A stretch of DNA of 64,000 nucleotides from an uncultured Gammaproteobacteria bacterium. GTDB taxonomy: Bacteria; Patescibacteriota; Microgenomatia; UBA1406; GWC2-37-13. This document shows positions 34,275 to 62,770 of this stretch, piece by piece. The position numbers were made by a program, and so were the translations under genes. A model generated the notes under the pieces. That model did not search any database, was not told the DNA's origin, and saw only the letters and a program-made list of their open reading frames with translations. Location: contig CAZIYS010000001.1 of assembly GCA_964543535.1 (NCBI GenBank), forward strand, positions 195,159 through 259,158, read 5' to 3'. Within the stretch, counting starts at the first letter, position 1; every line of letters starts with the position of its first letter.

Positions 34275-34285
34275 AGGCAAATGAT

Positions 34286-34532: not shown

Positions 34533-34534
34533 AT

Positions 34535-34882
34535 TTAGGGAAGAAGAAATCCTCCTTTATAACCGGGAATCCACCAGGGAATAAAGACGTAGATCATAAA
34601 AGCAATACGAAAGATAATAGAAAATACTACGTAAAAAATAATTAAAAGCAAGTGGTCTCTTATGTTCTTATGTCCCTTTTTCTCACAACATCTTCCGTAA
34701 TATTGATACAAAAAAAAGAAAAGCCCTCCCACAAGAAGAAGCGGGAGAAGAAAAATTTTCTTATCCCCCTCTTGACGAACCAACAAAAGATAACCGGAAG
34801 CGGCAAGAAAAATAATCAGGCCGCCACAACAAACAAGATGGAACAAAAAAAACGGCACCACTGACCCAATAAACTTTTTCAT
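34535..34882 (-). CDS. MerF/MerT-like small membrane protein with two vicinal Cys-Cys pairs
   Basis: HLVCCGG lies in TM1 and GRCCEKKGH in a loop. The layout resembles mercury/metal uptake proteins. Confidence 0.5.
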   Translation of the reverse strand: MKKFIGSVVPFFLFHLVCCGGLIIFLAASGYLLLVRQEGDKKIFLLPLLLVGGLFFFLYQYYGRCCEKKGHKNIRDHLLLIIFYVVFSIIFRIAFMIYVFIPWWIPGYKGGFLLP

Positions 34883-34924
34883 TTTTTCTTTCCGCCACCG
34901 TGACAGCCTTCGTGTTTCATAGGT

Positions 34925-37165
34925 TTATATTTTTGCTTTTTTTAGAAAAAGCGAATTTGTAACTACTGAAATGCTAGAAATTGCCATTGCTCCTGAGGCT
35001 AAAATCGGACTAATCCACCCCATCATGGCCACCGGTATCAAAACTACATTATACGCGAAAGCCCAAAATAAATTAAGCTTAATTGTTTTCATTGTTTGTT
35101 TGGATAATTTAATCGCCGAAACCACTGACATTAAATTTTTATTAACTAAGGTAATCCCGGCCGCTTCAATCGCAACGTCGGTGCCGCTTCCCATAGCAAT
35201 CCCGATGTCAGCGGAGGCAAGCGCCGGCGCATCATTAATTCCGTCTCCGATCATAGCAACTATTTTTCCTTGTAATTGAATCTTTTTTACTTCTTTTTCT
35301 TTGTCCTGTGGCAAAACTTCGGCTAAAACGTTTTCTTTTTTAATCCCAACTTGATTAGCAATTGCTATTGCTGTTTGATTGTTGTCTCCGGTAATCATAA
35401 ATATCTCAATCTCTAAATCTCTCAATCTCTGAATTGCTTCTTTAGCCGTTTCTTTAATCGTATCGGCAATGGCAATTGCGCCTACTAATTTTTCATCTAT
35501 ATAAACATAAACTACGGTTTTGCCTTGATTTTTTAGTTTTTGAGCCTGGTCACCCTTAGGGTGTTCAGCCACGAGTTTACCTACATAAATCTTTTTTCCG
35601 TTGATCATCCCTTCAACACTTTGACCGGTAATTGATTTAAACTTAGAGACTTTAATTAATTGAAGTTTTTCTTCTTGCGCTTTATTAACAATTGCTTCGC
35701 CCAAAGGATGCTCGGAATTTTTTTCGACAGATGCGGATAGAGTTAAAAGCGAAGATATTAAATTTTTTGCGGTTTGTGGTTTTCCGTCAAAAAATTTCGA
35801 TATCGAGCTTTTATTTATCACAATAATGTCTGTCACTTCTGGTTTGCCTTTCGTCAATGTCCCTGTCTTGTCAAAAATTATTGCTTTGATTTTATGGGCA
35901 GTTTCCAAGCTCTCAGCATCTTTAATTAATATTCCATGTTGAGCCCCGATTCCTGTTCCAACCATAATCGCAGTCGGGGTTGCCAGTCCCATTGCGCAAG
36001 GACAGGCAATAATTAAAACGGCAATCGAGTTAAGCATTGCCAAAATGAATCCGCCGGCTGACGGCCCAAAAACATACCAACCAACAAATGTTGAGATAGC
36101 CAACATTATCACAATAGGAACAAAATAAGAAGAAATAATATCGGCCAATCTTTGAATTGGGGCTTTGCTTCCCTGTGCTTCTTCAACCATTTTAATAATT
36201 TGGGAAAGCATGGTATCTTTACCGACTTTAGTGGCTTTATAAACAAAACTTCCCGATTTGTTCATCGTCGCTCCAATTACCATATCTCCTTTATATTTTG
36301 AAGCGGGCATGCTTTCACCAGTCACCATCGACTCATCAATTGCTGATTCTCCTTCAATAATGACTCCGTCAACAGGAATTTTTTCTCCCGGTCGAACCCT
36401 GATTAAATCACCAGCAACAACCGCATCAATTGAAATATCGATTTCTTTTTTATTTCGAATTACTCGAGCAGTTTTTGCCTGAAGGCCGATTAATTTTTTA
36501 ATCGCTTCTCCTGTCCCGGCTTTAGCTTGAGCTTCCAAGAACCGGCCCAACAAAATCAAACCAATAATAACTGTTGAGACGTCAAAATACGGTTCGGTTT
36601 TTAAATTTAGTCTTTCAAAAAAACCAGGAAAAAATACTACTGCGGCAGAATAAAGATAAGCTACCGTTGTTCCAATCACTACCAAAGTATCCATGTTGGC
36701 AAGGCGGTGTTTTAAAGAAGAAATCGCCGCTTTGTAAAAATCATAAGCTCCCCAAAACTGGACAATTGACGCCAGGAAAAAATGATAGAACATGTTTTTT
36801 AAGATATTTGGAGCCGTATTCAAAAGCCCTGGAAAACTCCCCCAAACGACTAAGCCAGCTAAAATTAGGCTGACAGTAGTTTTAATCTGGAGGTCTTTCA
36901 ATTCTTTTTCCTTTTCTTCTTTGATCTTCTCATCCAATGAATCTTCCTCGTGGGTTTCATCTAACATCGCTTCGTAACCAACACTTTCTACTGCACTTTT
37001 TATAGCATCATTTCCAATTGGCATAGCCGCAGTTATAGTGGCTTTGCCAGTATTCAAATTAACAACCGCTTCAGTAACTCCGGGAATTGCTTTTAATGCT
37101 TTCTCATTGGAATAAACGCACGAAGCACAGTGCATGCCTTTAATGGCAAAAGTTTGTTTATTCAT
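34925..37165 (-). CDS. copA: copper-translocating P1B-type ATPase
   Basis: N-terminal [37 protein letters not shown]. Confidence 0.95.
35745..35812. repeat. AT-rich hairpin element family E, in-frame copy inside copA
   Basis: Differs by only a few bases from 37175-37240. Translated as [23 protein letters not shown] between DKTGT and SEHPL. Confidence 0.85.
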
Positions 37166-37174
37166 ATGTTTTTC

Positions 37175-37240
37175 AAAGCGAAGATATCAAATTTTTTGCG
37201 GTTTTTTGTTTTCCGTCAAAAAATTTCGATATCGAGCTTT
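37175..37240. repeat. AT-rich hairpin element family E, copy in the copA upstream region
   Basis: aaagcgaagatatcaaattttttgcgg...ccgtcaaaaaatttcgatatcgagcttt. The arms are self-complementary. Confidence 0.85.
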
Positions 37241-37278
37241 AAATAACCCGTTAACATGTTAACTCGTTAACCAAATAA

Positions 37279-37632
37279 CTATTTAATAATTAGTTTGCCG
37301 TGGAACATACCCATGGCACAGGAAAAATCAAACTCCCCTTTTTTATCGGGGGTGATTTCAACAGTTACTTTCTCATTCAGAGGTAATGATTTTTTAATTT
37401 TAAAGTCGGCAAAAATCACTTCTTCCAAACAACTATTACTGTCTTTTCTTTGAAAAACTAGTTTTGTTGTTTTCCCATATGGAATTGCAATCCTTTCCGG
37501 TTTATAACCACCATCAACTAAGATATCAATTCTTCCTTCTGCTTGAATTGTATTAACTTTTTTCATAAAAAAGAACCAATAAGTAAATATTATGCCTAAG
37601 ATGCCAGAAACAGCAACAATTATTTTATCCAT
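37279..37632 (-). CDS. membrane-anchored cupredoxin-like domain protein
   Basis: TM anchor and FSCAMGMFHGKLIIK C-terminus. Same motif as the C-terminus of ORF 24735..26048. Confidence 0.65.
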   Translation of the reverse strand: MDKIIVAVSGILGIIFTYWFFFMKKVNTIQAEGRIDILVDGGYKPERIAIPYGKTTKLVFQRKDSNSCLEEVIFADFKIKKSLPLNEKVTVEITPDKKGEFDFSCAMGMFHGKLIIK

Positions 37633-37633
37633 A

Positions 37634-38563
37634 TTAAACCCCGCATCCTCCTCCGGTTTTTGGCGGCTGTTCGACTATTCCTTTATTAATTAACCACTGT
37701 TTAGCCGCTTGCCAACCTGAGGAAGAAGAAAATTCTTTACCTAATATTATCTGGGCTGGAACCTGGCTAAATTTTTTCCCTTCCTTATTTTTAAAGTATA
37801 ACGCCAAATCATAGTAATTACTTGGGAACCAAAATGCATTAAAGTATTTGGCCGCTTCAAACATCTGATTTTCCGTGGCATTATTTCCTGCCATCAACTG
37901 TAACACTGCCAGTAACGCCATTCCGTGGTTGCAGTCCGGAAAAGCAGTCGAATTATCACAACAAGGACGATAGATATTGCCAGCTACTTTTGCCACTAAC
38001 GCCTGTTGTTGATCGTTTAATGAAATCAGGCTTTCTTTTGAAAAATAATTCATTGGGTCACCGGCCGCCAAGCTCCAGCCACCGGTTGAGGCAAAATTAC
38101 CAACCTTGCCTTCACCGTACTTAACAATATCGCCTTCATCTAAAACCTTTGATTTATTGTTTAAACCAACGGCCCAGAAAAAGTTGAGCAAAAAATAAGA
38201 ATTGTCACGATCTATCTTGATTTTTTTATCTGATCCTTTAGTCAAAATTTCCAGCTGCTCTTTAGTTAACGGCTGAGCGCTCTTTTCATATGTCTGTTTA
38301 AACTTTTCCAGATCAATCACTCCGGAAGCAACCATTTTAGGCCCTAAATCGTCATATTTCGCATTAATCTCAAAGCCTTTTTCCGGATTAATTTCATCAA
38401 ATAAATTTGCCGTTTCTTTTTTCGCGGCAGTTTCTTTGCTTTTTGAGATTAACTTATTAACCTGCGGCTTTAACACATAGGCTAAAGCTAAAATATTTAA
38501 CCCCAAACTCAATCCCAAAACAATAAGCCAAAGATTTTTGGCTGGTTTTTTTGTTCTTTTCAT
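37634..38563 (-). CDS. secreted Cys-rich protein, P-C-C-D...D-C-x-H family (paralog 2), ends in GGGCGV
   Basis: Signal anchor. YRPCCDNSTAFPDCNHG. ATGA overlap with the upstream CcdA-like gene. Confidence 0.6.
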   Translation of the reverse strand: MKRTKKPAKNLWLIVLGLSLGLNILALAYVLKPQVNKLISKSKETAAKKETANLFDEINPEKGFEINAKYDDLGPKMVASGVIDLEKFKQTYEKSAQPLTKEQLEILTKGSDKKIKIDRDNSYFLLNFFWAVGLNNKSKVLDEGDIVKYGEGKVGNFASTGGWSLAAGDPMNYFSKESLISLNDQQQALVAKVAGNIYRPCCDNSTAFPDCNHGMALLAVLQLMAGNNATENQMFEAAKYFNAFWFPSNYYDLALYFKNKEGKKFSQVPAQIILGKEFSSSSGWQAAKQWLINKGIVEQPPKTGGGCGV

Positions 38564-39393
38564 TTTTTTTTAATTAATTTATAAAAAATAAAAATAATAA
38601 AACTGAAAATTAATAAATCGATGATCGGATTTTGAAAATATTTGGAGATATTAAAAACCATCAGCCGTAAAGGTTTAGTATAAACTTCCATCTGATACAT
38701 CTGGATCTTATTGTAATAATTAAAAATAATAATCAAAACTCCGGAGATGATAAAAATTCCTGCTCCTAAAGCCTGAAAGATTTTGTAGATTTTTTCCCGA
38801 TTAGAACCGGAAATTTTATTGGTTAGTTTATTGTAGAAAAGAGACAGAATAAAAAGCGGGAAAACTATCCCCAATACATAAGCTAAAGAGACAATTAAGG
38901 CCTGAAATAAAGTCGGTGATAAACTGGTCAGAGTGACGGCCGCAAACAAAACCGGCGCGCAACAGGAAGAAGAAAGCCCTGACATTACCCCTAAACTAAA
39001 CACCGAAAATATATTTATTTTTTCTCCCCCCTTGTCATCCCGAGCGAGCGGAGCGAGTCGAGGGAGCTTAAAAAGTTGGGGGAAATGAAAGATTGGTTTA
39101 ATCGTCATAAATCCCATAAAAATCAAAAACAATCCTCCAAAATAATAAATTTGCTTATGCCAACTGTCAAAAAAGAAGATAAAAAATCTAAATCCCAAAG
39201 CGACCGGAATTAAGATTATCGATAAACCCAGTGCAAATACCAAGGTATAAAACATTACTTTTGTTCCGCTTTTGAAAACCGTTCCCAGATAAGAAGGAAA
39301 TAAAAATGTGATACAGCATGGGGCAAACAAAGCCAAGACTCCGGCCAAAAACGAAGCGGTCAAGGAAATGCCGAAGAAAAAGTTGCTATTCAT
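38560..39393 (-). CDS. CcdA-like membrane protein with vicinal Cys-Cys in both halves (copy 2)
   Basis: LFAPCCITFLFPSY and SSCCAPVLFA. Carries the family C repeat in a loop. Confidence 0.7.
   Translation of the reverse strand: MNSNFFFGISLTASFLAGVLALFAPCCITFLFPSYLGTVFKSGTKVMFYTLVFALGLSIILIPVALGFRFFIFFFDSWHKQIYYFGGLFLIFMGFMTIKPIFHFPQLFKLPRLAPLARDDKGGEKINIFSVFSLGVMSGLSSSCCAPVLFAAVTLTSLSPTLFQALIVSLAYVLGIVFPLFILSLFYNKLTNKISGSNREKIYKIFQALGAGIFIISGVLIIIFNYYNKIQMYQMEVYTKPLRLMVFNISKYFQNPIIDLLIFSFIIFIFYKLIKKK
39036..39064. repeat. GC-rich palindromic element family C, in-frame copy inside a CDS
   Basis: catcccgagcgag-cggag-cgagtcgaggg, translated as part of PRLAPLARDD. The paralog at 31580..32428 lacks these residues. 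Confidence 0.75.
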
Positions 39394-52021: not shown

Positions 52022-52095
52022 CCTGTACCAGAAAACCTTCGGTTTACGGTACAGGATTTAGGGACTGTAATCCAGACTGAGTCGGGAACAGTCCC
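52022..52095. other. two adjacent stable hairpins (8-bp GC-rich stems)
   Basis: cctgtacc...ggtacagg (52022-52055) and gggactgt...acagtccc (52061-52095). Confidence 0.35.
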
Positions 52096-52098
52096 TAC

Positions 52099-52146
52099 AA
52101 AAAAACGCGCCGGGCCCTTCGATAAGTTCTCCGGACTCGGCTGCGT
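52099..52146 (-). terminator. intrinsic-terminator-like structure on the minus strand
   Basis: Minus strand: a GC-rich interrupted stem (cgcagccg...cggcgcg) followed by TTTTTTT. Confidence 0.4.
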
Positions 52147-52340
52147 ATGAGTTTGTTAGTAGCTATTAACGATTAGCTATTAACTATTTGAAACTTCTTT
52201 ATCCGCACCATAAACCTTGAGAATAGTTTTCATCTTCGAAAACTATCAGACGATAAGTTCTCATAGTTTTTTTTAGATTTATGATTAAAGTTTGATCAGT
52301 CTTTAATCAAAACTTATAATTAAATTTATCCTATAATTAA

Positions 52341-52369
52341 ACATTAAAGGATATATTTTAGTTTGTCAA
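52341..52369 (-). promoter_or_regulatory. sigma70-like promoter on the minus strand within the ORF-free region
   Basis: TTGACA (52364-52369), 17 nt, TAATGT (52341-52346). Confidence 0.4.
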
Positions 52370-52411
52370 GTGCATTTTATAATCAACAAATTTTTATCTT
52401 AAATGCACGAA

Positions 52412-52563: not shown

Positions 52564-53205
52564 TTAAAAAGGATTGATTACCCAATAGCTAACAATGGCG
52601 GCTGACACGATAACATTCAATGACTTGTTAATTCCCCACATTGGGATCTCAACGATTTTATCACATAATTTTAGCGTCTCCTCAGTCACTCCATATGATT
52701 CATTGCCAAGAATTAATGCTAAAGGCAAAGAATAATCGGCTTTTTGATAAGGAATTGAGTTTTTGGCCTGTTCGACGGCAATAATAGAAATAGGAACATG
52801 GAAGTTGGGTTTTGATGCGGGTTTGGAAGATTGAAGCTGGAAATTAGAATTTCTTCTATCTTCAATTTCTATCTTCTTAACTCGTTTCCAAACCTTCCTT
52901 CTATTCTCCATTTTTCTAAGTTCTTCAATCGCCTCCCCGGCCGTCTTCTTATATTCCCATGGCACAACTTTATAAGTTCCAATTGAAGCCTTTTTAATTC
53001 TCGAATTCGGCGGTACTTCCATCTCCCCGCAAAGATAAATTTTTTCAATCGCCAGAGCGTCGGCCAAACGAAACAATCCGCCGATATTATAGGTATCATA
53101 GATATTCTCCAAAATAAAGTAGATCGGCCGCCGCTTGATTAACTTTAGTTTGTCCGCAACTTCTTTTTCATCAACATCACGAAGTTCTTTAGCGTTAAGT
53201 TTCAT
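52564..53205 (-). CDS. SpoU/TrmH-family RNA 2'-O-methyltransferase with an internal basic insertion
   Basis: NIGGLFR, LILGNESYGV and IPMWGINKSLNV motifs. A ~40-aa Lys/Arg-rich segment lies between them. Confidence 0.75.
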   Translation of the reverse strand: MKLNAKELRDVDEKEVADKLKLIKRRPIYFILENIYDTYNIGGLFRLADALAIEKIYLCGEMEVPPNSRIKKASIGTYKVVPWEYKKTAGEAIEELRKMENRRKVWKRVKKIEIEDRRNSNFQLQSSKPASKPNFHVPISIIAVEQAKNSIPYQKADYSLPLALILGNESYGVTEETLKLCDKIVEIPMWGINKSLNVIVSAAIVSYWVINPF

Positions 53206-53349: not shown

Positions 53350-53979
53350 ATGAAAAAAATATTTGCTTTTTTCGTTGTTATTTTTTCATTTCTTGCCATA
53401 ACTGTTTCTGCTTCTGCCGGTTGCGGCGGACAGTACGAATCCCCTTGTCAATCGTATTCAATATTGGTTGATAAGATGGTCGCAAAACCAGGTACTGAAA
53501 ATTATGTAGATAATTTATCAATCTCTGATTATCCTCGCTTTGCACCTGGTCAAACTGTTTTATTTAAAGTGACTATAAAAAATACCTCAACCACCACTTT
53601 TGGCGGCATGACTGCCAAAGATTTTGTTCCGGATTATTTAACTCCTATTGAAGGACCTGGAACCTTTGATTCAACTACCAGAACAATTTCTTGGGATGCT
53701 GGTTTTTTTAATGTTGATGAACAAAAAACCTATTATTTTAAAATGCAGATTAACTCACAAGCCAATTTACCAGCTGATAAGGGTTTATTTTGTCTCGTAA
53801 ATAAAGCTCAAGCATGGTCAAATACTACAACTGATGACGACACATCTCAGCTTTGTGTCGAAAAACAGGTAGTTGGCGCTCCAAAAGTCCCTTCTGCCGG
53901 ACCGGAATTAGGAATACTATTACTTTCAGGTCAGGTAGCCTTATTAGGCGTTGGAATATACCTTAAAAGAAAAGTTTAA
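53350..53979 (+). CDS. secreted surface protein (DUF11-like repeat domain) with C-terminal sorting-signal-like tail
   Basis: Signal peptide. FKVTIKNTSTTTF...DFVPDYL. C-terminus is VPSAGPE, then a TM helix, then KRKV. Confidence 0.6.
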   Translation: MKKIFAFFVVIFSFLAITVSASAGCGGQYESPCQSYSILVDKMVAKPGTENYVDNLSISDYPRFAPGQTVLFKVTIKNTSTTTFGGMTAKDFVPDYLTPIEGPGTFDSTTRTISWDAGFFNVDEQKTYYFKMQINSQANLPADKGLFCLVNKAQAWSNTTTDDDTSQLCVEKQVVGAPKVPSAGPELGILLLSGQVALLGVGIYLKRKV

Positions 53980-54145
53980 TTTCTTACTCCATTTAATCAT
54001 TTCGTCATTTGTTCATTTTTTCATTTATTTGATTATTAGATTATTTGTTTATTTGATTATTTATTAGTCCTGTATTTCTTCGAAATAGGTCTATGTGTTT
54101 TCCTTGTGCATAAAAAAACCTATCTTTTCCCAATCAGCACTATAA

Positions 54146-54174
54146 TTGATTTTTGACTCTTGATGTGCTATACT
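54146..54174 (+). promoter_or_regulatory. strong sigma70-like promoter with extended -10
   Basis: TTGATT, 17 nt, (TGc)TATACT. Confidence 0.55.
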
Positions 54175-54180
54175 ATGGGG

Positions 54181-54486
54181 CATATGAAAACAGTTTTGCT
54201 GAGACTGGTTTCGTTGATACCCAAGGAGAGGATTGTAATTAAAAAACTACGATCTTGGCCTTGGGTTTTTGCGTATAGAAGCTTGATCTCAGGGATCGAG
54301 GGATAGGAGAATGAATCAGCACCTATCCCCCGTTTCTTGGGGTTAAAATCTCAAGTTTTTCCCGCCGAAGGGGCGGGACCAAAAAGGAAGTTGTGACAAT
54401 TAGCCGTCACAAATCTTCCTTAATGGTAGATCGTGACGGAAATGAGTTGTTCATAAGCTAGAACAACTATTGAAAATATTTTTTTC
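54181..54486 (+). ncRNA. candidate structured non-coding RNA (~300 nt), class unknown
   Basis: Downstream of the promoter lie at least 5 stable hairpins: 54220-54265, 54300-54329, 54361-54377, 54386-54419, 54445-54468. A T-run follows at 54479-54485. No ORF with an SD. Confidence 0.35.
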
Positions 54487-54815
54487 CGTCGCACGTTTAC
54501 AAAATGGGTTTACCCGAACAAATTTTTTCTCGGGAATCAATAATAGCTATTGAAGAACCGAAAATTTCGACGGGTATTTTACTCGAAAGAGTAAATCAGG
54601 TTACTATATTTTATATGGGCATTTTATGGGCACATGGGAAACATGGCAGATTTGAACACGAACCTGAAAATCATCATCCTTTCTTTCCGAAAGAAATAAT
54701 TCTAGAAATAGGATTATTTTAAGTAGGGAAAGATTGGCTTGCACTTTGGCGCTAACTAATCGTTAGCCTCAGAGAGCAAGTCAATCTAAAAATCAGAAAA
54801 AGGAGAAAATGAAAA

Positions 54816-54962
54816 ATGAATACAATCGTATCAGTAGGTCTGAGTGGCCTTTTAACATGGGCACTCAAAAAAACATCCAAAGACATTGGGAATAAAATCC
54901 CTTTGTTAATTTGGATAATTATTTTCGTTGTGTTTGCGATTGGTTTCGCAAACATTAAGTAA
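54816..54962 (+). CDS. 48-aa two-TM peptide (not in the ORF track)
   Basis: SD aggag 10 nt upstream. MNTIVSVGLSGLLTWALKKTSKDIGNKIPLLIWIIIFVVFAIGFANIK. Confidence 0.4.
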   Translation: MNTIVSVGLSGLLTWALKKTSKDIGNKIPLLIWIIIFVVFAIGFANIK

Positions 54963-55115
54963 GATCGCCTTTTGAAAGGAGGTGATAAATAAGAAAAAGG
55001 GAGTGTACTCAACCCCTACTTACACCATACGGTGTAGATAATTCCAACAGGCCTGCAAAAGGTACTGACGGAAAACGAGAGAAAACGAAAAGTAAGATAA
55101 GAACAAGGAGTTAAA

Positions 55116-55796
55116 ATGAACCCGCAACTAGGACGACAGCAACAACAAGCACCCGCCGCAGCCGCACAACAAGCGCCGCAACCAGGACAGCAACCGCGCC
55201 CACAGCAACCGACGTGGTTTGCTCGAAACCGAAATTGGGTGATCCCTATGATCATCTTGATCGCAATCGTTTTTTGCCTTTCCTGCTTGGTCATCACAGG
55301 CCTCGTTGGATATGCATTCACGCGATCCGCCGCCGCTGTTCCCACCGCCCCGTACGCCCCCCCCGCTTCAACCGAAGCCCCCGCTCTGCCCACCCCCGCC
55401 GCGCCCGCGAATTCCTCATGTCCCACCACTCAAGAGGCCAAGAACCTCACTGGTGTTGACGTCCAACGCTTAGGCACAGAACCTTGTGCTTGGGTTTGGA
55501 GAGGAGTTCCCCCTGCCACTACGTTCGCCCGCTGTCCATCTGGATTCGCCTGCACCTGGGATGTCGTCAACGACATAACTGTTGTGCATTCTGGCGTCAA
55601 CCAGACTGCTGAAATTCACGCGGGAACGTGGAGATTTGTGGCGGCTTACCCGACCAGTGATGCAGTGCACGATATTTGTGCGCTCTATCAGAAAGAAAAG
55701 GCCTTCGGCTTGTCCGAAGTTCCTAGCTTTCAGGTTAGGTTTCAGTCCGTCACAGACGGCTCTTTGGGCCCTATTGGTCCGCAAACCTGTCCGTAA
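55116..55796 (+). CDS. GC-rich foreign-looking gene: Gln/Pro/Ala-rich tail, one TM helix, Cys-rich ectodomain
   Basis: SD aaggag 7 nt upstream. 226 aa. Six ectodomain Cys. Base composition is sharply different from the flanks. Confidence 0.6.
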   Translation: MNPQLGRQQQQAPAAAAQQAPQPGQQPRPQQPTWFARNRNWVIPMIILIAIVFCLSCLVITGLVGYAFTRSAAAVPTAPYAPPASTEAPALPTPAAPANSSCPTTQEAKNLTGVDVQRLGTEPCAWVWRGVPPATTFARCPSGFACTWDVVNDITVVHSGVNQTAEIHAGTWRFVAAYPTSDAVHDICALYQKEKAFGLSEVPSFQVRFQSVTDGSLGPIGPQTCP

Positions 55797-56048
55797 AAGG
55801 ACGTGAATGTGCCGTGCCGGCACTGTATAAGTATCCAATCGGATACTCGGCACAACCTGCAACCCACTGAGAGACTGAGAGAAATCTCAGAAAAAAGGAG
55901 GAAGAAGCTCTGTTATGTTTTTTGTTTGAACCGGAAGGTCAATTGCAGCCATTCGGCTCCAATTGCTTTCCGCAATTCAAACAAACTCATAATATCTTCT
56001 CCTCTTTTTTCTCATAATCATCAAGCACTTGGTGGTTATAGGAAAAAT

Positions 56049-56813
56049 ATGAAAACAATAAGTTTTGTCATCCCCGTTTATAACGAGGAAAAAAGAATTG
56101 AGAAGACTTTTAAAGCCTTGATGAAAGGTGTCTCTTTTAATGGGATAAAATTGGAAAAAGTAATTTTTGTCGACGACGGAAGTAGAGACGAAACAAAATC
56201 AAAAATCCAAATGACAAAATCTAAACTGGTAAGAAAATTAAAGGCAAAAATAAAGATAATCTCTTACAGTAAAAATCGCGGTAAAGGACATGCCATAAAA
56301 AGAGGCATGTTGGTTTCTAAATCAGATTATACTCTGATGTTTGATGCTGATATGTCAACTGAAATTAAAGAGTTAAGGAAGTTTTTATCTTTTATGAAAA
56401 AAGGTGTTGATATTATCATCGGCACCCGCAAAAACGGAGAGTCAACCGTCATCAAACACCAACCATTGTACCGTGAGCTTTTGGGACGCGGTTTTACCCT
56501 TTTATCAAACATTATCCTTGATACCTGGGTGACGGACTTTACCTGTGGATTTAAAGTTTTTTCAAAATTCGCCAAAAATAGAATTTTTGAAAATACTATC
56601 ATAGACCGTTGGTCATATGACGCGGAAATTATTTATCTGGCCAAAAAAATGAATCTGCTCATTCAAGAAAAATCTGTCGTCTGGAAAAATGATCCTCAAA
56701 CAAAAGTTGATTTAGCAAAAGATTTGCCTCAAACTTTAACTGACCTTATTAAAATAAAAATTCATGACTACAACTTACTAATTTCATTTTCTAAAAAACC
56801 AGCATTCATATGA
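56049..56813 (+). CDS. GT2 glycosyltransferase (polyprenyl-phosphate glycosyltransferase-like)
   Basis: ISFVIPVYNEE, VDDGSRDET and FDADMS motifs. ATG at 56049 is preferred over the track start at 55803. Confidence 0.85.
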   Translation: MKTISFVIPVYNEEKRIEKTFKALMKGVSFNGIKLEKVIFVDDGSRDETKSKIQMTKSKLVRKLKAKIKIISYSKNRGKGHAIKRGMLVSKSDYTLMFDADMSTEIKELRKFLSFMKKGVDIIIGTRKNGESTVIKHQPLYRELLGRGFTLLSNIILDTWVTDFTCGFKVFSKFAKNRIFENTIIDRWSYDAEIIYLAKKMNLLIQEKSVVWKNDPQTKVDLAKDLPQTLTDLIKIKIHDYNLLISFSKKPAFI

Positions 56814-57877
56814 AAAACAAAGTAATTGTTATTTCAAGCTATCCGGAAAAGTCCCTGACTCATGGTGAAAAGACCGTCGGTGTAGCTTCATACACTAAGA
56901 ATCTTTTATTGAATTTGAAAAATATCAATTTTGAGGTCTTGGCGGAAATTCATAATAAAAAAGAGAAATATGAAGAACAAGGTATTCTTGTCAATCGTGT
57001 TTGGAGGCGTAATTCTATCACCTCAATGATCGATTTGATGAACTACGTCACCAAAAGTCAAGTGATGACAATCGTTGTTCCTCTCGAATTTTATATGTTT
57101 GGAGGGTTAGTACAAAATATTGTTTTTCTTTACTCGCTTTTAGTATGGAAACTGTCTGGAAAAAAAATAATCTTAATTTTGCACCAAGTCGTGCTTTTTG
57201 TGAAAATATTCTATTTGCCGTTAATATTTTTGTCAGAAGAGGTCGTTGTTTTTGAAGAAAAATTTAGAAAAGTTTTAGGAAGTAAAAAAGTTGTCTTTAT
57301 TCCTCATGCCGTTGAATCGGTTCACATAGAAAAAACAAAAATAAATAAAAAATTCTCTGCTTTATATTTTGGTTTTCTTTCTCCATATAAAGGAGTAAAA
57401 GAATTAATAAATCTTTGGGATAAAAAGTTTGGTGCATTAATCATTGCGGGAGGCGGTAACCCTAACCATATGAAAAATAAACGGTATTTTGATTTCCTAA
57501 AAAATATTAAGGCCACCGGTTTTGTACCGGAAGATAAAATCGCCGATTATTTTTCAAAAACCAACCTAGTTATTTTACCTTATAAAATGTTTTTTTCTTC
57601 ATCCGGTCCTTTATCATTGGCTTTTTCTTTTGAAAAACCGTTTATTTTGTCAAAACCGCTCGAAGGGTATTTTGATAGCCCGGATTTTGACGAAGCTTTG
57701 AAAGAAACTGGATTAAAAAAGGAAGATTTTCTTTTTGATTTTAATAGCGAAAGTTTTGAAAATCGATTGAATTGGGCGAAGAAAAATCTCAACAAATTGA
57801 CTGCGTTTTCAAGGATAATGAAAGAAAAGAGAGCTTGGAAAAACGTCGCCAAACAATATGAAACACTTCTTAAGTAA
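56810..57877 (+). CDS. GT-B glycosyltransferase (GT1/GT4-like)
   Basis: C-terminal GFVPEDKIADYF...LPY block. ATGA overlap with the GT2 gene. Confidence 0.65.
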   Translation: MKNKVIVISSYPEKSLTHGEKTVGVASYTKNLLLNLKNINFEVLAEIHNKKEKYEEQGILVNRVWRRNSITSMIDLMNYVTKSQVMTIVVPLEFYMFGGLVQNIVFLYSLLVWKLSGKKIILILHQVVLFVKIFYLPLIFLSEEVVVFEEKFRKVLGSKKVVFIPHAVESVHIEKTKINKKFSALYFGFLSPYKGVKELINLWDKKFGALIIAGGGNPNHMKNKRYFDFLKNIKATGFVPEDKIADYFSKTNLVILPYKMFFSSSGPLSLAFSFEKPFILSKPLEGYFDSPDFDEALKETGLKKEDFLFDFNSESFENRLNWAKKNLNKLTAFSRIMKEKRAWKNVAKQYETLLK

Positions 57878-60728
57878 ATATAGATATCAGTTATTACTTT
57901 TTCTTATTGCTGCCATTCTCTTTTGGGTGAATTATTCACCGGGAACATACCTTTCCGGCTGGGACAATCTGCAGACTGAATTAAATCCCGAACTGGCTGT
58001 CAAACGGGCGTTTTTTAGCGTCTGGGAAGAGTATCAAAGCTTTGGTTTAACGGCCGGTATGGCTCATGCGGCTGATCTGCCCAGAGCGGTTCTCTTATGG
58101 CTCGTTTCGTTTGTCTTACCCCAAAATATGATCCGGTATTTTTATCATTTTTTGATGTTATTGTTAGGAGGGTTGGGAATGTTTAAGGTAATTATAGGAC
58201 TGGATCCCCGCCTCCGCGGGAATGACCCCACTTCGCCCTTCGGGCTTCGAGGGGCAAGCAATAAAACAATTGCCTTCCTTGGCGCTCTGTTTTATATGCT
58301 CAACCTTGGTACTGTCCAGATTTTTTATCTGCCGTTTGAATCTTTCTCGACTTTCTTTGCTCTCCTGCCGTGGGGGGTGTGGACGTTTATAAAAATAATA
58401 TCAAATATCAAATATCGAATATTAAAAAGAGATCTTCTGATTTTTTTTCTTATCAACCTTTTGGGCACACCCGCCTTTTATACCCAACAACTTTTTATTG
58501 TGTATATGCTGGTTTTAGGATGCATTGCTTTGGGAAAACTTAAAAATATAAAGAGAATATTTCTCGCTTTTTTTCTAATTTTAATTATAAATTCTTTCTG
58601 GATTCTACCGCAGGTATATTTTTTGAAAACCAATGGCGGTTGGCTAACTCAGGCCAAATCCAATCAAATCACCACCGAAGACACTCTTTATCAAAACTTA
58701 GAAAAAGGAACACTTGGTAATTTTTTAAGACTTGAGGGGTTTTACTTTGACCTCAGAGGAATACATAGCACTCCCCTTTTTTCGCCTTGGAAAGATCATT
58801 TTCAGGGAGCTTTTGAATTGCTCTCATATGCTTTTGCCGGATTGATGATTTTGGGTTTTTTAAAAACTATCAAAGAAAAAAAAATTGGCTTTGTTTTAAT
58901 TTTCGTTCTCTCTGCCACAGTTCTGCTTTTAGCAACACCGCCTTTTTCCTGGATCAACGAACTAATCAGACAGATTCCTATCATTAATCAAATCTTTCGT
59001 TCCCCTTTTACGAAGTTTATTATTCCTTATTCGTTGGTTTATAGTTATTTCGTCGTAAAAGGACTGTCCTTTTTCGGAACTAATTTGAAAAAGGTCAGTC
59101 CTTATATAATAGTTTTGATTTTTCTCTACTCTCTTCCCGCTTTCCAAGGCTATTTCTTTTCTCCGGAAATGAAAGTTACAATCCCAAATGATTATTCTCA
59201 AGTGATGAATTATTTTAAAACTGCTGAGAAAAACAAAAGGATTGCTCTTCTTCCCGATTATACTTTTTGGGGCTGGTTTTTTAATAAATGGGGTTATAAC
59301 GGGTCAGGATTTTTATGGTATGGGATTGAACAGCCGATTGTTTCCCGGACTTTTGACGTCTGGAGCTCAAAGAGCGAGTCATATTTTTGGGAAGAAAAAC
59401 AGGCGCTTGAGGCAGAAGATCTAACCCAATTTGAAAAAGTTCTTGATAAATACAACATAGATTATTTAATCATGGACTATTCTCTGATTCCGGTTGTCTC
59501 AAGTTATAAAAGTTTGGCCACCGATAGAATAGAAAATCTAATATACGCAAGTCAAAAGATTTCTTTAGTTTTCCGAGGAGAAAATGTCGCCCTTTATCAA
59601 GTCAGCCATCCGCAAAAAATAGAAAGTTTCGTTACTTTGTCATCAGGATTAAAAAATATCGGACCGGAAGTAAAGTTGATGATCGAGGACCGTGCTTATC
59701 AAGAAAATGGCGATTATATTTTGGATTCCCGCCCTGATATTTATTATCCGTTTGCTGATCTAACAACCCAAACGAGAATCAAAGATAAACAGTGGAACAT
59801 AAAAGAGTTAATTAACTCTTTTTCTATCAACTCTGATGTTGGTTTAGATCTTAACAACTATCAATTTAACATGCCATTGACCTCTACTGCCGGTATTTCC
59901 AATGATCAAGTAATAGCTAATTTAAAACTTAATCTAAATCCTTTTTTTGAAGACAAAAAAATCAAAATTAACTTTGAAAAAGTGTTAGTTAAATCGTTTG
60001 ATGTTAGTGGTTTCAATAATAATTTGACGGAATACGCTTTGACTGCGCCGGAATTGCCACAAAAATATGGTTATCTAATCAAAATCCGAAGTAAAAATAT
60101 CAAAGGTTCTCCATTATTTTTTTATATTGTTGATGAAACAAAAAAACAGTCGATGCTCGAAGAAAAATTAAGAGTCGATACCGAATATTTTATTTTACCT
60201 CATAAATTCGATTACGGCCTCGGATATTCTTTTGTCTTTCAAAATAAATCTTACAAAAACTATCCCTCGGAAAATTTGCTGGAAGAAGTATCTGTCTATT
60301 TGTTTCCATACGAAGAGTTAAAAAGTGCCAAGTTTATTAAAAATAATTCAACTCTAACAATACCAAGCTTTTCTGATGAATTTGAAGCTAAAAAAATTAA
60401 TTATTTTACCTACAAAGTCGTTATTAACAATGAAGTAATAAAACGATCCAATAATTTGATTTTATATCAATCCTACGACGACGGCTGGATTGCCATCTCC
60501 GGCGGAAAAAAACTTGACCATGTCTTAGTCAACAACTGGGCCAACGGATGGGAAATCAGTAGTCAGAAGTTAGAAGTTAGTAGTCAGCTAAAAGGAAAAA
60601 AACTAATTCCTAACTACCAACTACCAACTACTATTATCATCATCTTCTGGCCGCAGTACCTGGAGTTTTTGGGGTTTGGACTACTAATCGTTGCTTTTTT
60701 ATTTATTATTAAACAGAAGAATCTTTAA
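57858..60728 (+). CDS. large polytopic membrane protein, GT-C-like with soluble C-terminal domain
   Basis: 956 aa. N-terminal YLSGWDNLQTELNP loop, more than 12 TM helices, and a final TM helix. Carries repeat elements A+B in frame. Confidence 0.6.
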   Translation: MKHFLSKYRYQLLLFLIAAILFWVNYSPGTYLSGWDNLQTELNPELAVKRAFFSVWEEYQSFGLTAGMAHAADLPRAVLLWLVSFVLPQNMIRYFYHFLMLLLGGLGMFKVIIGLDPRLRGNDPTSPFGLRGASNKTIAFLGALFYMLNLGTVQIFYLPFESFSTFFALLPWGVWTFIKIISNIKYRILKRDLLIFFLINLLGTPAFYTQQLFIVYMLVLGCIALGKLKNIKRIFLAFFLILIINSFWILPQVYFLKTNGGWLTQAKSNQITTEDTLYQNLEKGTLGNFLRLEGFYFDLRGIHSTPLFSPWKDHFQGAFELLSYAFAGLMILGFLKTIKEKKIGFVLIFVLSATVLLLATPPFSWINELIRQIPIINQIFRSPFTKFIIPYSLVYSYFVVKGLSFFGTNLKKVSPYIIVLIFLYSLPAFQGYFFSPEMKVTIPNDYSQVMNYFKTAEKNKRIALLPDYTFWGWFFNKWGYNGSGFLWYGIEQPIVSRTFDVWSSKSESYFWEEKQALEAEDLTQFEKVLDKYNIDYLIMDYSLIPVVSSYKSLATDRIENLIYASQKISLVFRGENVALYQVSHPQKIESFVTLSSGLKNIGPEVKLMIEDRAYQENGDYILDSRPDIYYPFADLTTQTRIKDKQWNIKELINSFSINSDVGLDLNNYQFNMPLTSTAGISNDQVIANLKLNLNPFFEDKKIKINFEKVLVKSFDVSGFNNNLTEYALTAPELPQKYGYLIKIRSKNIKGSPLFFYIVDETKKQSMLEEKLRVDTEYFILPHKFDYGLGYSFVFQNKSYKNYPSENLLEEVSVYLFPYEELKSAKFIKNNSTLTIPSFSDEFEAKKINYFTYKVVINNEVIKRSNNLILYQSYDDGWIAISGGKKLDHVLVNNWANGWEISSQKLEVSSQLKGKKLIPNYQLPTTIIIIFWPQYLEFLGFGLLIVAFLFIIKQKNL
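58208..58257. repeat. composite GC-rich palindromic elements A+B, in-frame inside a CDS
   Basis: 58208-58227 is the reverse complement of 9784-9803. 58226-58257 matches 47102-47133. Translated as DPRLRGNDPTSPFGLRGAS. Confidence 0.85.
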
Positions 60729-61062
60729 TATCTTTTTTCACTTTTTCTATTAGCTTTTTAGTCTCTGGAAGGACTTTAATTATTGTACTCCAGATTCTTT
60801 CAGATACAATATCAGCATAGTTATGGATAGCCACGTCTCTAAGCCCTGCCATTTTCTTCCAGGGAATTTCTGGATATTTTTCTCGAATAGCAATTGGAAC
60901 ATGTTTTGTGGCTTCACCGATAATTTCCAATCTGCGCATAACTGAATCCTGAAGTTGAAAATCTTCATAAAAATCATCTTCGGATTTTCCTTTAATATAA
61001 GACTTGATCATATCAATACAGTCCAAGATGTCTTGAATTCGTAGATTATAATCTCTTTTCAT
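60709..61062 (-). CDS. HepT-like (DUF86) RNase toxin
   Basis: RLEIIGEA and RDVAIHNYADI (R-x4-H-x-Y) motifs. Confidence 0.85.
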   Translation of the reverse strand: MKRDYNLRIQDILDCIDMIKSYIKGKSEDDFYEDFQLQDSVMRRLEIIGEATKHVPIAIREKYPEIPWKKMAGLRDVAIHNYADIVSERIWSTIIKVLPETKKLIEKVKKDIKDSSV

Positions 61063-61346
61063 TTAGAAGATGGATAAATTGGTAATTGACTGGAAAGAAT
61101 ACTTTGTCTTAAAGCTGGTTTTATTCCTTTAAATTCAACTAAATCTACTTTTTTTTTCAGCACATCTTCCAGCTCAAATTGAATATCCATCATATCAAAT
61201 AAACTTTTGTCCTTCGGTACTTCAACCAAAATATCTATGTCACTTTTTTTATGAGTATCGCCCCGGACAACTGACCCAAACAAAGAGGCGCGACTGACGC
61301 CGTATTTTTTCAAAATTGGTATTATTTTGACTGTTATTTTATCCAT
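61059..61346 (-). CDS. MNT-type minimal nucleotidyltransferase antitoxin
   Basis: LFGSVVRGDTHKKSDIDILV motif. 4-nt overlap with HepT. Confidence 0.85.
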   Translation of the reverse strand: MDKITVKIIPILKKYGVSRASLFGSVVRGDTHKKSDIDILVEVPKDKSLFDMMDIQFELEDVLKKKVDLVEFKGIKPALRQSILSSQLPIYPSSK

Positions 61347-61743: not shown

Positions 61744-62340
61744 CTAACTATAAAGACCGAAGTAAGTCTTTAGCTGACTTTCTCGCTCTAATTTTTCGGC
61801 AATAATATAGCTTATATATTTTCCGCCTTCGACTATTTTTTTGATTAAACCAATCTCCTTCTCACATTCATAAGGAAAAACATAAACGCTTTGGTTGTAA
61901 GGATAAAAACTAATCTCCTTTAAAAAACTTCTTAAATAATTACGTTTATTTCTCTCCTCTTCTGGTACATCAAAAACCACTATAAACCATTTTCCTTGCC
62001 ACTTCTTTTTTTTCTTAAGATTTAAAACTTCTCGTAGTGAATATTTCAAAATAGAAACATCATCTTTATTTTTTACAGTCACAGAAATTTCTTCTCCTTT
62101 TCTTTCAATTTGAATTAATTTCTTTTTTTCAAGCTGCTTTAATACTCGTTTTGCTTTTTCTTTCGGTATTTTTATTCCTTTAAATTCTTCAATAATCTTA
62201 AGTATTCCTCCCAAAACAATGGGAAAATTTGGCGTGATAAAAATGGAGCCGCCTAAAACCAAACCGATTCCTAAAGCGGCTAGGATATATTGTTTTAATT
62301 CATTCGGTTTAAATTTTTTCTCTTTTTGGTTATTAGTCAT
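61744..62340 (-). CDS. membrane-anchored protein with PaaX-C / Cas2-fold-like C-terminal domain
   Basis: WQGKWFIVVFDVPEEERNKRNYLRSFLKEISFYPYNQSVYVFP. ATG at 62340 is preferred, because the track's N-terminus is encoded by the repeat. Confidence 0.5.
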   Translation of the reverse strand: MTNNQKEKKFKPNELKQYILAALGIGLVLGGSIFITPNFPIVLGGILKIIEEFKGIKIPKEKAKRVLKQLEKKKLIQIERKGEEISVTVKNKDDVSILKYSLREVLNLKKKKKWQGKWFIVVFDVPEEERNKRNYLRSFLKEISFYPYNQSVYVFPYECEKEIGLIKKIVEGGKYISYIIAEKLERESQLKTYFGLYS

Positions 62341-62352
62341 AATCCTTAGCAT

Positions 62353-62373
62353 ACAACTCTCGTGCGGCCGCAT
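62353..62373. repeat. 21-bp direct repeat, copy 2
   Basis: Identical to 61703-61723. Similarity continues for ~10 nt further. Confidence 0.9.
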
Positions 62374-62411
62374 TCAAGTGGTATGGTAATCGGTTAAATA
62401 AAAATAAAGAG

Positions 62412-62633
62412 TTATAAATTTTTTATTAAACTTCCTATTTTTATTTTCAAAATTTTGGCAATTTTATGAAGAAATCTGATTGATGGATTAGCTTTACCTT
62501 CTTCAACCTCAGCCAGATAACTGCGATCAACATCAGAGAGAATCGCCACTTGCTGTTGAGATAACTTAAGTTTTTTTCGATGAGTGATAATGCTTTCCCC
62601 CAGCCTTTTATAATAGAAATTACCTCGCGTCAT
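62412..62633 (-). CDS. XRE-family HTH regulator (paralog 1)
   Basis: LSQQQVAILSDVDRSYLAEVEEGKANPS helix-turn-helix. Confidence 0.8.
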   Translation of the reverse strand: MTRGNFYYKRLGESIITHRKKLKLSQQQVAILSDVDRSYLAEVEEGKANPSIRFLHKIAKILKIKIGSLIKNL

Positions 62634-62667
62634 TCAGCAATCATATTGGAATCAATATCAAAAAACA

Positions 62668-62683
62668 GTAGGTTATAACCTAC
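62668..62683. promoter_or_regulatory. perfect 16-bp palindrome, candidate XRE operator
   Basis: gtaggttataacctac lies 35 nt upstream of the ATG at 62633. Confidence 0.5.
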
Positions 62684-62770
62684 AAAATATATATTTTAGA
62701 TATCTATAACAAGCTAAATTTTAGCATATACCATGTGGGATATATCCAAGCTAATAATATTAATGTTAAT

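Follow-up and report, generated by a model that had tools for sequence, protein, structure and literature searches.

A GC-rich island in an AT-rich Microgenomates contig is the coding sequence of a native, modular membrane-tethered protein

The 64-kb window analyzed here (contig CAZIYS010000001.1 of GenBank assembly GCA_964543535.1, positions 195,159 to 259,158) contains a single strong outlier in GC content, an island at 55116-55870. This island is the coding sequence (CDS) of a native, vertically maintained gene of the Microgenomates, within the Candidate Phyla Radiation (CPR), and is not a foreign import. The gene occupies a position, here called the slot, at the front of a cassette of glycosyltransferase (GT) genes, and its product is a type-II membrane-tethered protein made up of a short tail, a signal anchor, a disordered stalk and a conserved head of 125 amino acids (aa). 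The best explanation overall, which we favor with moderate confidence, is that this native CPR gene encodes an abundant, probably O-glycosylated, membrane-tethered surface protein and leads a glycosylation cassette. Positions are those of the full 64-kb stretch, features of the slot locus are given on the forward (+) strand, and L-numbers denote homologous loci fetched from other genomes.

A conserved slot gene of the Microgenomates

In 200-nucleotide (nt) windows the GC fraction, 0.33-0.38 to the left, is 0.50-0.645 from about 55000 to 55900 and 0.29-0.36 thereafter; the 1-kb bin 55001-56000, with a GC of 0.527, is the sole bin above 0.42 in the 64 kb, and in 700-nt windows the peak of 0.571 at 55151-55850 stands out from a background of 0.345 ± 0.040 (maximum 0.446; z = 5.6). 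A preliminary description of this DNA had noted a GC-rich switch over some 800 bp, which the sliding windows confirm, and had put its GC at roughly twice that of the flanks, which was an overstatement, the ratio being about 1.65. The borders of the island are sharp and coincide with the edges of the CDS: the 5' leader (54975-55115) has a GC of 0.39, the CDS (55116-55796) 0.575, the 3' hairpins (55797-55860) 0.53 and the intergenic sequence beyond them (55861-56048) 0.38. Among the 56 open reading frames (ORFs) of the window the slot gene is the top outlier in GC, in GC at third codon positions (GC3), in C at fourfold-degenerate sites and in the use of C-ending NNY codons (NNY-C). A mis-join at the island is very unlikely, judging from sequence comparisons, because the AT-GC-AT layout recurs in more than 15 independent assemblies and because homology crosses both edges: L015 is similar from the leader into the CDS and again over 55894-56055, and L001 and L008 from the CDS into the 3' untranslated region (UTR).

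The CDS at 55116-55796 (226 aa) is identified by its ORF, its homologues, its codon-position divergence and an AlphaFold2 (AF2) model, and it is preceded by a Shine-Dalgarno (SD) sequence, AAGGAG at 55105-55110, read from the sequence 5 nt before the ATG and corresponding to the local-type SD described earlier. Mean pairwise differences in a codon alignment of nine loci are 0.24 for first, 0.20 for second and 0.62 for third positions, which points to purifying selection on the + frame and to a real protein gene. Given this pattern, both the opposite-strand ORFs and a non-coding-RNA reading fall away; ORFs at 55016-55429 and 55470-55862 do exist on the opposite strand, and the divergence fits the + frame only, as expected if they merely follow from the composition. 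Antisense genes were accordingly rejected as candidates, the substitution periodicity matching the + frame alone.

The product has the four parts that had been proposed for it. A cytoplasmic Gln/Pro/Ala tail (aa 1-33, 55116-55214) is followed by a transmembrane (TM) anchor at about aa 39-64 (55230-55307; a helix at 39-64 in the AF2 model), a Pro/Ala/Thr linker (aa 65-101, 55308-55418) and a six-Cys ectodomain (aa 102-226, 55419-55793), so that the call of a single-pass, Cys-rich membrane or surface protein is supported. Two of the eight Cys lie in the TM helix and six in the ectodomain (C102, C124, C140, C146, C188 and C225), and these six are, together with W128 and other residues, invariant or nearly so across the family alignment, in which the N-terminal part is variable, the C-terminal 125-aa domain is conserved and the indels are whole codons. 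The AF2 model gives the ectodomain a predicted local distance difference test score (pLDDT) of 94-97 and residues 65-101 a low pLDDT of 46-60. The protein thus carries an extracytoplasmic, Ser/Thr-bearing disordered region on a membrane tether, with the topology deduced from the N-terminal anchor. Across the head family to which it belongs, referred to here as family A, 54 proteins are anchored by a TM helix and nine by a lipobox (lipoprotein signal), and the linkers range from 11 to 215 residues with a pooled composition of 16% Ala, 14.5% Pro, 13% Thr and 7% Ser.

The head resembles nothing in the collections searched. Pfam, NCBIfam, PHROGs and PADLOC gave no meaningful match to the protein, and its hits to a cytochrome b561 TM model (0.12), GltJ (0.0096) and a Zot-like protein (0.02) were dismissed, all of them falling on the low-complexity or TM part. 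A profile search of PDB sequences found no match, and Foldseek with the full-length AF2 model, disordered N-terminal half included, found none below E 0.5 in PDB or BFVD; echoes of cupin and CBM32 beta-sandwiches were not significant. With a confident model and no Pfam, PDB or viral-structure match, the family-A head is, as modeled, unclassified.

Homologues are numerous and keep the same place. A database search returned 45 close homologues, and a profile search of 1.84 billion representatives returned 254 clusters (50% identity) at E ≤ 0.001 and 185 at E ≤ 1e-10. All of the named homologues are Patescibacteria (Gottesmanbacteria, Roizmanbacteria, Levybacteria and Microgenomates), and both of the distant family members examined are in a CPR-type context. 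In every family-A locus fetched the slot gene lies directly upstream of a GT2, a GT1 and a membrane protein of 900-1100 aa, usually with a CLIPPER/DUF11 gene upstream and a DUF87/TrwB ATPase gene downstream, and in every one it is far more GC-rich than its surroundings. Slot-gene GC is 0.506 in L001 (rest of the locus 0.368), 0.543 in L004 (0.41), 0.584 in L006 (0.356), 0.535 in L012 (locus 0.312), 0.549 in L101 (locus 0.367) and 0.669 in L100, where the adjacent GT2 has 0.317. Family-A genes with the same bias fill the same slot in L001, L004, L006, L008, L011-L014, L032, L046, L100 and L101, and in closer relatives of the window the slot holds other GC-rich heads. The preliminary description had taken the island for likely recent foreign DNA in the style of a high-GC lineage, and had named in advance, as the observation that would speak against this, same-biased homologues at the locus in relatives; these are what we find.

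The age of the bias can be judged from synonymous sites. Within identical amino acids, the fourfold sites of the window gene differ from those of other lineages by 0.63-0.77, and those of GT2 by 0.67-0.74. The sites are saturated as in GT2, and the GC bias is therefore ancient and maintained and not the relic of a donor; by the same token the high protein identity of the head reflects constraint and not recent transfer. The excess of GC is a built-in property of such genes as a class.

A scan of GTDB genomes yielded five loci only, and four of these are titled 'uncultured Gammaproteobacteria' and have CPR-type synteny. The four, L007, L008, L010 and L011 (CAZJFG01, CAYJKR01, CAYSVP01 and CAZXND01), bear the title 'uncultured Gammaproteobacteria bacterium' and show the gene content and synteny of Microgenomates; since the loci share the same CPR-type synteny, the titles look like mislabels.

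Exchange of modules and the source of the GC excess

By identity of their CLIPPER and GT-C-fold proteins, the closest relatives of the window are L016, L018 and L019. These match the window on both flanks (~74% nt) and not over ~54820-57858, where they carry other GC-rich genes and other GT sets. The slot gene of L016 has a family-B head (GC 0.533, GC3 0.515), those of L018 a family-B head (0.531, 0.597) and a third head type (0.499, 0.486), and that of L019 encodes a 389-aa PT-rich protein (0.450, 0.256); a double GT2 accompanies the slot genes of L016 and L018. A further locus, L015, has the leader, tail, TM segment and linker in common with the window (54975-55408) and then continues with a family-B head and a double GT2. 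The recombination junction that this implies, seen in the alignment and by blastn, falls at 55409-55419, at the boundary of linker and ectodomain: L015 matches 55176-55408 and L001 matches 55409-55850, sequence upstream of the junction being shared with L015 and its family-B head and sequence downstream with L001/L012 and their family-A head. Beyond the gene, the intergenic segment before GT2 (55894-56055) is 81.5% identical to L015 at the nt level (blastn) despite a different head and a different GT gene, and forms the 3' anchor of the exchangeable head cassette.

The proteins of the locus have discordant affinities. The window CLIPPER protein and GT-C are closest to those of L016-type genomes (76% and 70% aa identity), and its head (74-82%), GT2 (64-82%) and GT1 (61-62%) are closest to those of L001, L008 and L012; such discordance, together with the mosaic nt matches, supports a reshuffling of the locus by recombination. 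We extended the comparison to another 54 loci, each anchored by a GT-C homologue, with identities as low as 33%. In 31 of them the most GC-rich upstream ORF is at least 0.095 above its locus, typically 0.13-0.25, and these 31 ORFs encode a hydrophobic anchor, 25-38% Pro/Ala/Thr, no more than 6% Lys and two to nine Cys. Clustering of the slot proteins gives at least 15 unrelated head families; what is constant across them is the plan of anchor, stalk and small Cys-containing head, and one anchor motif, P[TS]WF.RN..W with a Cys-containing helix, recurs with four different heads. These alignments show that related lineages swap heads and GT sets, recombining at the conserved leader/anchor and intergenic sequences.

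Two variations on the slot deserve mention in their own right. A second GC-rich gene for a secreted Cys protein stands in tandem with the slot gene in L011 (10513-11199), L018 (4664-5206) and L100 (8938-9372), and L100 and L101 have an additional Cys domain at the C-terminal end ('...TLW[CD]...'), which is either part of the same chain as the family-A head or encoded by an ORF of its own. In Borrelia, the vls system is a GC-rich surface-antigen locus in an AT-rich genome, and its exposed part is exchanged by recombination. The window differs in that no silent cassettes or second slot-gene copy are present in the 64 kb, in that the head family is conserved and not hypervariable, and in that exchange is between lineages and not within a cell.

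The leader of the slot gene carries a second SD-like site. The sequence GAAAGGAGGTGA at 54974-54985, a 12-nt complement of the 3' end of 16S ribosomal RNA (rRNA), lies 131-142 nt upstream of the start codon and is followed by no start codon at workable spacing; the 8-mer AAGGAGGT has only three occurrences in the 64 kb. Similar upstream sites at about -110 to -176 precede 10-11 of 14 slot genes and 7 of 17 further ones, about 17 of 31 in all, as compared with 7 of 515 control ORFs (1.4%). We regard GAAAGGAGGTGA as a candidate element of the STAB-SD (stabilizing SD) kind, which would bind the 30S subunit and stabilize the mRNA. In Bacillus thuringiensis cry3Aa and cry3Ca, according to PMC12970973, which cites Agaisse and Lereclus (1996), such an element (SD-like GAAAGGAGG at about -125 in cry3Ca) protects a stable mRNA. 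The two cases are alike in having an SD-like site over 100 nt before the start codon at which translation does not begin, the cry3 gene being very strongly expressed; they differ in phylum, and the likeness of the window element is one of sequence and position. A 7-bp leader hairpin, UUACACC-AUAC-GGUGUAG at 55020-55037 (fold z = -2.5), has an identical stem and a different loop in L015, a comparison of two sequences only and so weak evidence.

Downstream, a cluster of 3' hairpins at 55798-55890 (z = -2.6) consists of nested hairpins at 55809-55823 and 55830-55847 within a stem at 55798-55858, the nested GC hairpins of the preliminary description, and then of a further one at 55875-55890. These are not canonical terminators, since no U-tract follows them, and terminator prediction on the + strand made no call there. 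They are common to L001 and L008, with one compensatory change (GTATCC/GGATAC versus GTTTCC/GGAAAC); no 3' UTR consensus structure was predicted over seven loci, the hairpins being common to the three closest loci only. A possible role is that of a 3' stabilizer or of a partial terminator before GT2. A separate motif, AAACC(T/A)(G)(A/C)ACCC, follows the stop codons of family-A genes in the window (55855-55870) and in L001, L006, L008, L012 and L046, even where the hairpins differ.

The GC excess itself has two components. When the expected GC was computed from the amino-acid sequence of the slot protein with the codon usage of the window, a background of 0.351 rose to an expectation of 0.512, as compared with 0.575 observed, and thus about 70% of the excess is due to protein composition and about 30% to G/C-ending synonymous codons. 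The protein is rich in Ala (14.2%, background 5.6%), Pro (11.5%, 3.7%), Gln (8.4%, 3.1%), Thr (8.4%, 4.9%), Cys (3.5%, 0.8%) and Trp (2.7%, 0.9%), and poor in Lys (1.3%, 9.9%), Ile (4.4%, 9.7%), Leu (4.9%, 10.6%) and Asn. Its GC3 reaches 0.553 where 0.377 is expected, with high values in each of the four gene segments, the linker being the most GC-rich part of the gene. For synonymous sites more generally, 30 slot genes from many lineages were each compared with their own locus: fourfold sites gain 0.113 in C, a rise seen in 28 of 30 loci, and 0.055 in G, seen in 22 of 30, NNY-C is 0.57 versus 0.30, and the G-ending share of NNR codons (NNR-G) is 0.44 versus 0.25. Lineages differ in the size of the effect, which all but vanishes in L001 and L013 and is pronounced in the window, L006, L012 and L100.

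Ordinary translational codon bias is weakened as an explanation, G-ending codons being raised too, and five ribosomal-protein genes in the loci, a small sample, showing no GC3 excess (0.26-0.34); because these genes are unbiased, the synonymous bias is not the usual one of highly expressed genes. Two candidate causes of the synonymous excess are then selection on the transcript, with which the sharp CDS edges and the upstream leader element are consistent, and GC-biased gene conversion at a recombination hot spot. Under gene conversion the slot would be a site of frequent strain exchange and the Ala/Pro linker partly a by-product, and it is in keeping with this that modules are swapped at defined junctions, that both G and C are up at the synonymous sites of the 30 slot genes, that the ribosomal-protein genes lack the bias and that the unconstrained linker has the highest GC (0.743, with GC3 0.714). 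However, the excess ends at the CDS edges, and the recombination anchors, leader and downstream intergenic sequence, reach only 0.38-0.39; GT2 and GT1 are also exchanged yet are AT-rich; L001, L013 and L019 have GC3 near background in the same slot; and the rise in C is about twice that in G. We consider gene conversion an unlikely source of the excess, if one to be kept in mind.

The glycosyltransferase cassette and a proposed function

The cassette runs from the slot gene, which stands first, through GT2 and GT1 to a gene for a 956-aa GT-C. The 254-aa GT2 (56049-56813), a GT-A-fold enzyme, matches PF00535 at 6e-25, and a GT2 follows the slot gene in every family-A locus. Its best NCBIfam matches are PgfS (1.9e-22; 79.9 bits against a cut-off of 500), PpgS, ArnC, AglJ and Dol-P-hexose transferase; none reaches its curated cut-off, and the closest families are polyprenyl-phosphate-sugar synthases. 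The 355-aa GT1 (56810-57877), of GT-B type, is recognized by PF00534 at 2e-6 and by its conserved position, and as its start overlaps the GT2 stop, translational coupling of the two is likely.

The 956-aa protein (57858-60728) is assigned from hydropathy, AF2 and Foldseek. Hydropathy indicates about nine N-terminal TM helices, an extracytoplasmic beta-rich domain of ~490 aa and a C-terminal TM helix, and an invariant G34-W35-D36 lies just after TM1. Pfam found no family match for the window protein; among 120 listed of its more than 464 homologues, three carry PF11847 and one PF09586, and PF20176 occurs in a few homologues. AftD is its only PDB sequence match, at E 0.3. Its AF2 model (pLDDT 83; predicted template modeling score, pTM, 0.83) is matched by Foldseek to AftD 6w98 at E 2.9e-19 (query-normalized template modeling score, TMq, 0.52) and to STT3/PglB at 1e-5 to 7e-4, with probability 1.00. 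On these models we take it to be a GT-C-fold glycosyltransferase that is AftD-like in fold only. We know of no CPR bacterium that makes arabinogalactan or lipoarabinomannan (LAM). The resemblance to AftD (PDB 6W98, PF11847) consists of the N-terminal TM GT-C module, the large extracytoplasmic beta-rich domains and the C-terminal TM, whereas identity is ~10%, the window protein has 956 aa to the ~1400 aa of AftD, and it falls below the Pfam model.

Our proposal for the cassette draws on a streptococcal precedent. In streptococci a GT-A (PgfS/GtrB) and a GT-C (PgfM1/PgtC2) O-glycosylate extracytoplasmic, Ser/Thr-rich disordered regions of membrane-tethered proteins; this shields such regions from proteolysis, and the Pgf cluster of S. 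mutans encodes its own adhesin substrates (PMC12041528). It is because of this GT-A/GT-C precedent that glycosylation is suggested here. GT2 and GT1 would build a polyprenyl-phosphate-linked sugar donor inside the cell, and GT-C would move the sugar onto Ser/Thr of the stalk outside the membrane. The outcome would be a mucin-like stalk, shielded from proteases, with a disulfide-bonded head held out at the cell surface. High expression may come from a long-lived mRNA, to which the STAB-SD-like site ~140 nt upstream, the 3' hairpins and the GC-rich body could each contribute, and the head may be a binding module, alternative heads reflecting different partners.

Several points weigh against this proposal. 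We infer the glycosylation, expression level, mRNA half-life and surface location of the slot protein from its genes and their context. The window linker is more Ala/Pro than Ser/Thr, with eight Ser/Thr in ~35 residues; the GT2 matches are far under the curated cut-offs, and the enzyme is without the C-terminal TM helices of GtrB-type enzymes; AftD, the nearest structural relative of the GT-C, modifies polysaccharide and not protein. The upstream SD-like site is absent in about half of the slot genes, mostly from distant, higher-GC lineages, and the lack of a GC3 excess in five ribosomal-protein genes sets the synonymous bias apart from the ordinary codon bias of highly expressed genes.

The same operon could be read with the slot protein not as acceptor but as a partner of the machinery, active in substrate recognition or chain-length control, or serving as a carbohydrate-binding subunit or a chaperone for an envelope glycopolymer. 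In keeping with such a role, the head, at 65-81% aa identity, is better conserved than anything else in the operon (30-64% for GT1, GT2 and GT-C); the slot gene is always first in the operon; the GT-C is closest to AftD, a polysaccharide builder; and the weak, non-significant fold echoes are of CBM32 and cupin beta-sandwiches. Against it, at least 15 unrelated heads stand beside homologous GT-Cs, whereas one would expect a partner tied to the enzymes to be harder to swap, and the only feature common to all, an anchor, a Pro/Thr/Ala stalk and a small head, is the typical layout of a displayed glycoprotein. A partner role is in our view quite improbable, and we retain the displayed surface protein as the better account of the slot.

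The comparison with Pgf and GtrB/PgtC2 (PMC12041528, PMC5856776) shows both likeness and difference. Alike are a GT2 whose best family match is PgfS, a large GT-C membrane enzyme, and a membrane-tethered protein with an extracytoplasmic, low-complexity stalk bearing hydroxy amino acids, co-encoded as are the substrates in the S. mutans cluster. The window system differs in its GT-C, which is AftD-like and not of YfhO type (PF09586), and in the presence of an extra GT1; its stalk is Pro/Ala/Thr-rich and not Ser/Thr-rich, its anchor is N-terminal (TM or lipobox) and not LPXTG, and its host is a CPR bacterium. The strong GC anomaly and the exchangeable heads are without counterpart in PMC12041528 and PMC5856776. 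Because the GT-C is not YfhO, the GT2 is below cut-offs and the glycosylation is putative, we do not file the window system, which would work like a cluster of the Pgf/GtrB-PgtC2 type, as a member of it.

Actinobacterial O-mannosylation, with the GT2 Ppm1, the GT-C PMT and the acceptor Apa (PMC12331936), offers a second parallel, in that exported proteins have Ala/Pro/Thr-rich acceptor regions and a GT2-made polyprenyl-phosphate donor is used by a GT-C outside the membrane. It differs in that there is no homology to Apa or PMT (GT39), in that the genes are clustered here and dispersed in mycobacteria, and in that the window genome is AT-rich. The likeness to Apa-type acceptors explains why the gene had at first looked actinobacterial. 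The known kind behind the finding is that of surface glycoproteins served by a GT-A/GT-C cluster of their own; the head domain is unclassified.

Origin of the island and the surrounding genes

The case for a recent horizontal uptake of high-GC DNA (from Actinobacteria, Chloroflexi, the host of the symbiont or a phage), with GC as an un-ameliorated donor signature, is that the island is a strong, sharp-edged compositional outlier in a recombinationally mosaic locus and that its Ala/Pro-rich style is like that of actinobacterial secreted proteins. No CPR donor pool accounts, however, for the slot-gene GC of 0.50-0.67, as it lies above that of all host genomes sampled (0.28-0.49), and since GT2 and GT1, exchanged alongside, are AT-rich, exchange fails to account for it as well. 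Phage genomes, PHROGs and BFVD gave no match to the slot protein (in PHROGs, the 0.02 low-complexity hit only), PADLOC found nothing in the four operon genes, and the island is without tRNA, integrase or flanking repeats: the nearest tRNA is ~11 kb off, a search for flanking repeats found short A-rich chance repeats only, and the neighbors are envelope genes. With same-slot, same-bias homologues over deep Microgenomates divergence, named homologues that are all Patescibacteria, and synonymous sites that are saturated yet still high in GC3 (28 of 30 slot genes), a high-GC import is extremely improbable. The earlier suggestions of an actinobacterial or Chloroflexi style and of a host- or phage-derived surface or exclusion protein are thus withdrawn, the named homologues being Patescibacteria/Microgenomates only and there being no phage or defense signal; of the preliminary description as a whole, the surface protein, the local SD and the 3' hairpins stand, and the high-GC or phage origin, with GC as its proof, does not.

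In AT-rich genomes, GC-rich islands are often RNA genes. A structured non-coding or dual-function RNA with an incidental ORF, for which mildly negative fold z scores might be cited (CDS -2.2, UTRs -2.3 and -2.6), was rejected and has a negligible chance of being correct, given no Rfam match even at E ≤ 1, the strong third-position periodicity of a protein-type substitution pattern, whole-codon indels, invariant Cys and Trp, and a confidently predicted fold for the translated product.

To the left of the slot, the conserved neighbor is a CLIPPER/DUF11 surface-protein gene (53350-53979; PF01345 at 7e-8), found also in L001, L004, L006, L012, L016-L019 and L100. The CLIPPER protein ends in a conserved, sorting-signal-like 'VPSAGPE - hydrophobic helix - RKK' (also at L016 3514-4152, L018 2531-3166 and L019 3314-3949), and in L001-L003 a sortase gene lies directly beside the CLIPPER gene. 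At the window locus tblastn found no sortase, and a sortase pseudogene was searched for in 53980-54820 and not found. This stretch of ~840 bp, which separates the CLIPPER gene from a small ORF, is free of long ORFs; it includes patches conserved at 70-85% nt with L015, L016 and L018 (54021-54177, 54316-54512 and 54596-54820) and terminator-like hairpins at 54336-54355 and 54391-54412. The small ORF, upstream of the leader at 54816-54962, encodes a hydrophobic protein of 48 aa with no family match; L001 and L018 also have small membrane ORFs at this place, of 43 and 63 aa and dissimilar in sequence, and the ORF of the window is at most a candidate member of the system.

To the right, a HepT/MNT toxin-antitoxin pair (60709-61346), a PaaX/Cas2-like gene (61744-62373) and a segment at ~62405-62701 that matches genes for helix-turn-helix (HTH) proteins in relatives lie inserted between GT-C and the DUF87/TrwB ATPase gene (from ~63217 on). 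In L001, L006 and L016 the DUF87/TrwB ATPase gene directly follows GT-C, and the HepT/MNT pair is not conserved together with the slot.

Elsewhere in the window, extracytoplasmic thiol-redox proteins (three DsbD_TM proteins, a thioredoxin-like protein and a membrane AhpC/TSA redoxin) fit the handling of an exported Cys-rich protein. They lie in a thiol/metal-redox cluster at 26281-39393, with DsbD_TM/CcdA-type genes at 26281-26889, 31580-32428 and 38560-39393, the thioredoxin-like gene at 30497-30763 and the membrane-anchored AhpC/TSA redoxin at 30760-31458; ORFs at 24735-26048 and 34925-37165 look by eye like HMA-domain/copper-ATPase genes. An AT-rich intergenic stretch at 52087-52393 is 87-88% identical at the nt level to L016/L019, above the conservation of the neighboring genes, and contains a promoter-like site (TTGATC-17-TATAAT), an inverted repeat (TATCCT...AGGATA), a candidate ORF of 19 aa on the minus strand and, at ~52100-52156, a conserved GC-rich element, AAAAAACGCGCCGGGCCC...GGACTCGGCGGCG; Rfam gave no match to this stretch. 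A hairpin within the SpoU methylase gene (52806-52896) has a sub-threshold match to the plant microRNA (miRNA) family MIR774 (36 bits versus a gathering threshold of 80) and coincides with a gap in nt similarity to relatives; most probably the hairpin arose by chance or marks a small insertion.

A literature search for earlier accounts of such genes in CPR found nothing relevant, and the general phenomenon, a Microgenomates slot that recombines GC-rich surface proteins with variable heads and actively keeps up their synonymous GC excess, appears to be undescribed. It provides a counter-example to the equation of GC islands with foreign DNA, in that a native gene class stands 20-35 GC points above its genome and does so until synonymous saturation. 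As the GC3 excess is gene-specific, being found in 28 of 30 lineages and not in ribosomal-protein genes, it also offers a tractable case for telling selection on mRNA from biased gene conversion. To our knowledge the cell-surface and host-recognition molecules of the Microgenomates are essentially unknown; for the biology of CPR bacteria, the locus suggests a family of surface proteins that is conserved and probably abundant, with heads that can be swapped and a glycosylation operon of its own. The slot genes are accordingly specific candidates to examine as attachment determinants and to take up in structural and biochemical work. We raise as a tentative possibility, and one more likely to fail than to hold, that they form an undescribed modular class of Microgenomates surface glycoproteins, with swappable disulfide heads as partner- or host-recognition determinants and with synonymous GC actively held by selection for mRNA durability or by biased gene conversion. 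If this were true, the heads would be the main determinants by which these ultrasmall, probably episymbiotic cells recognize their partners or hosts.

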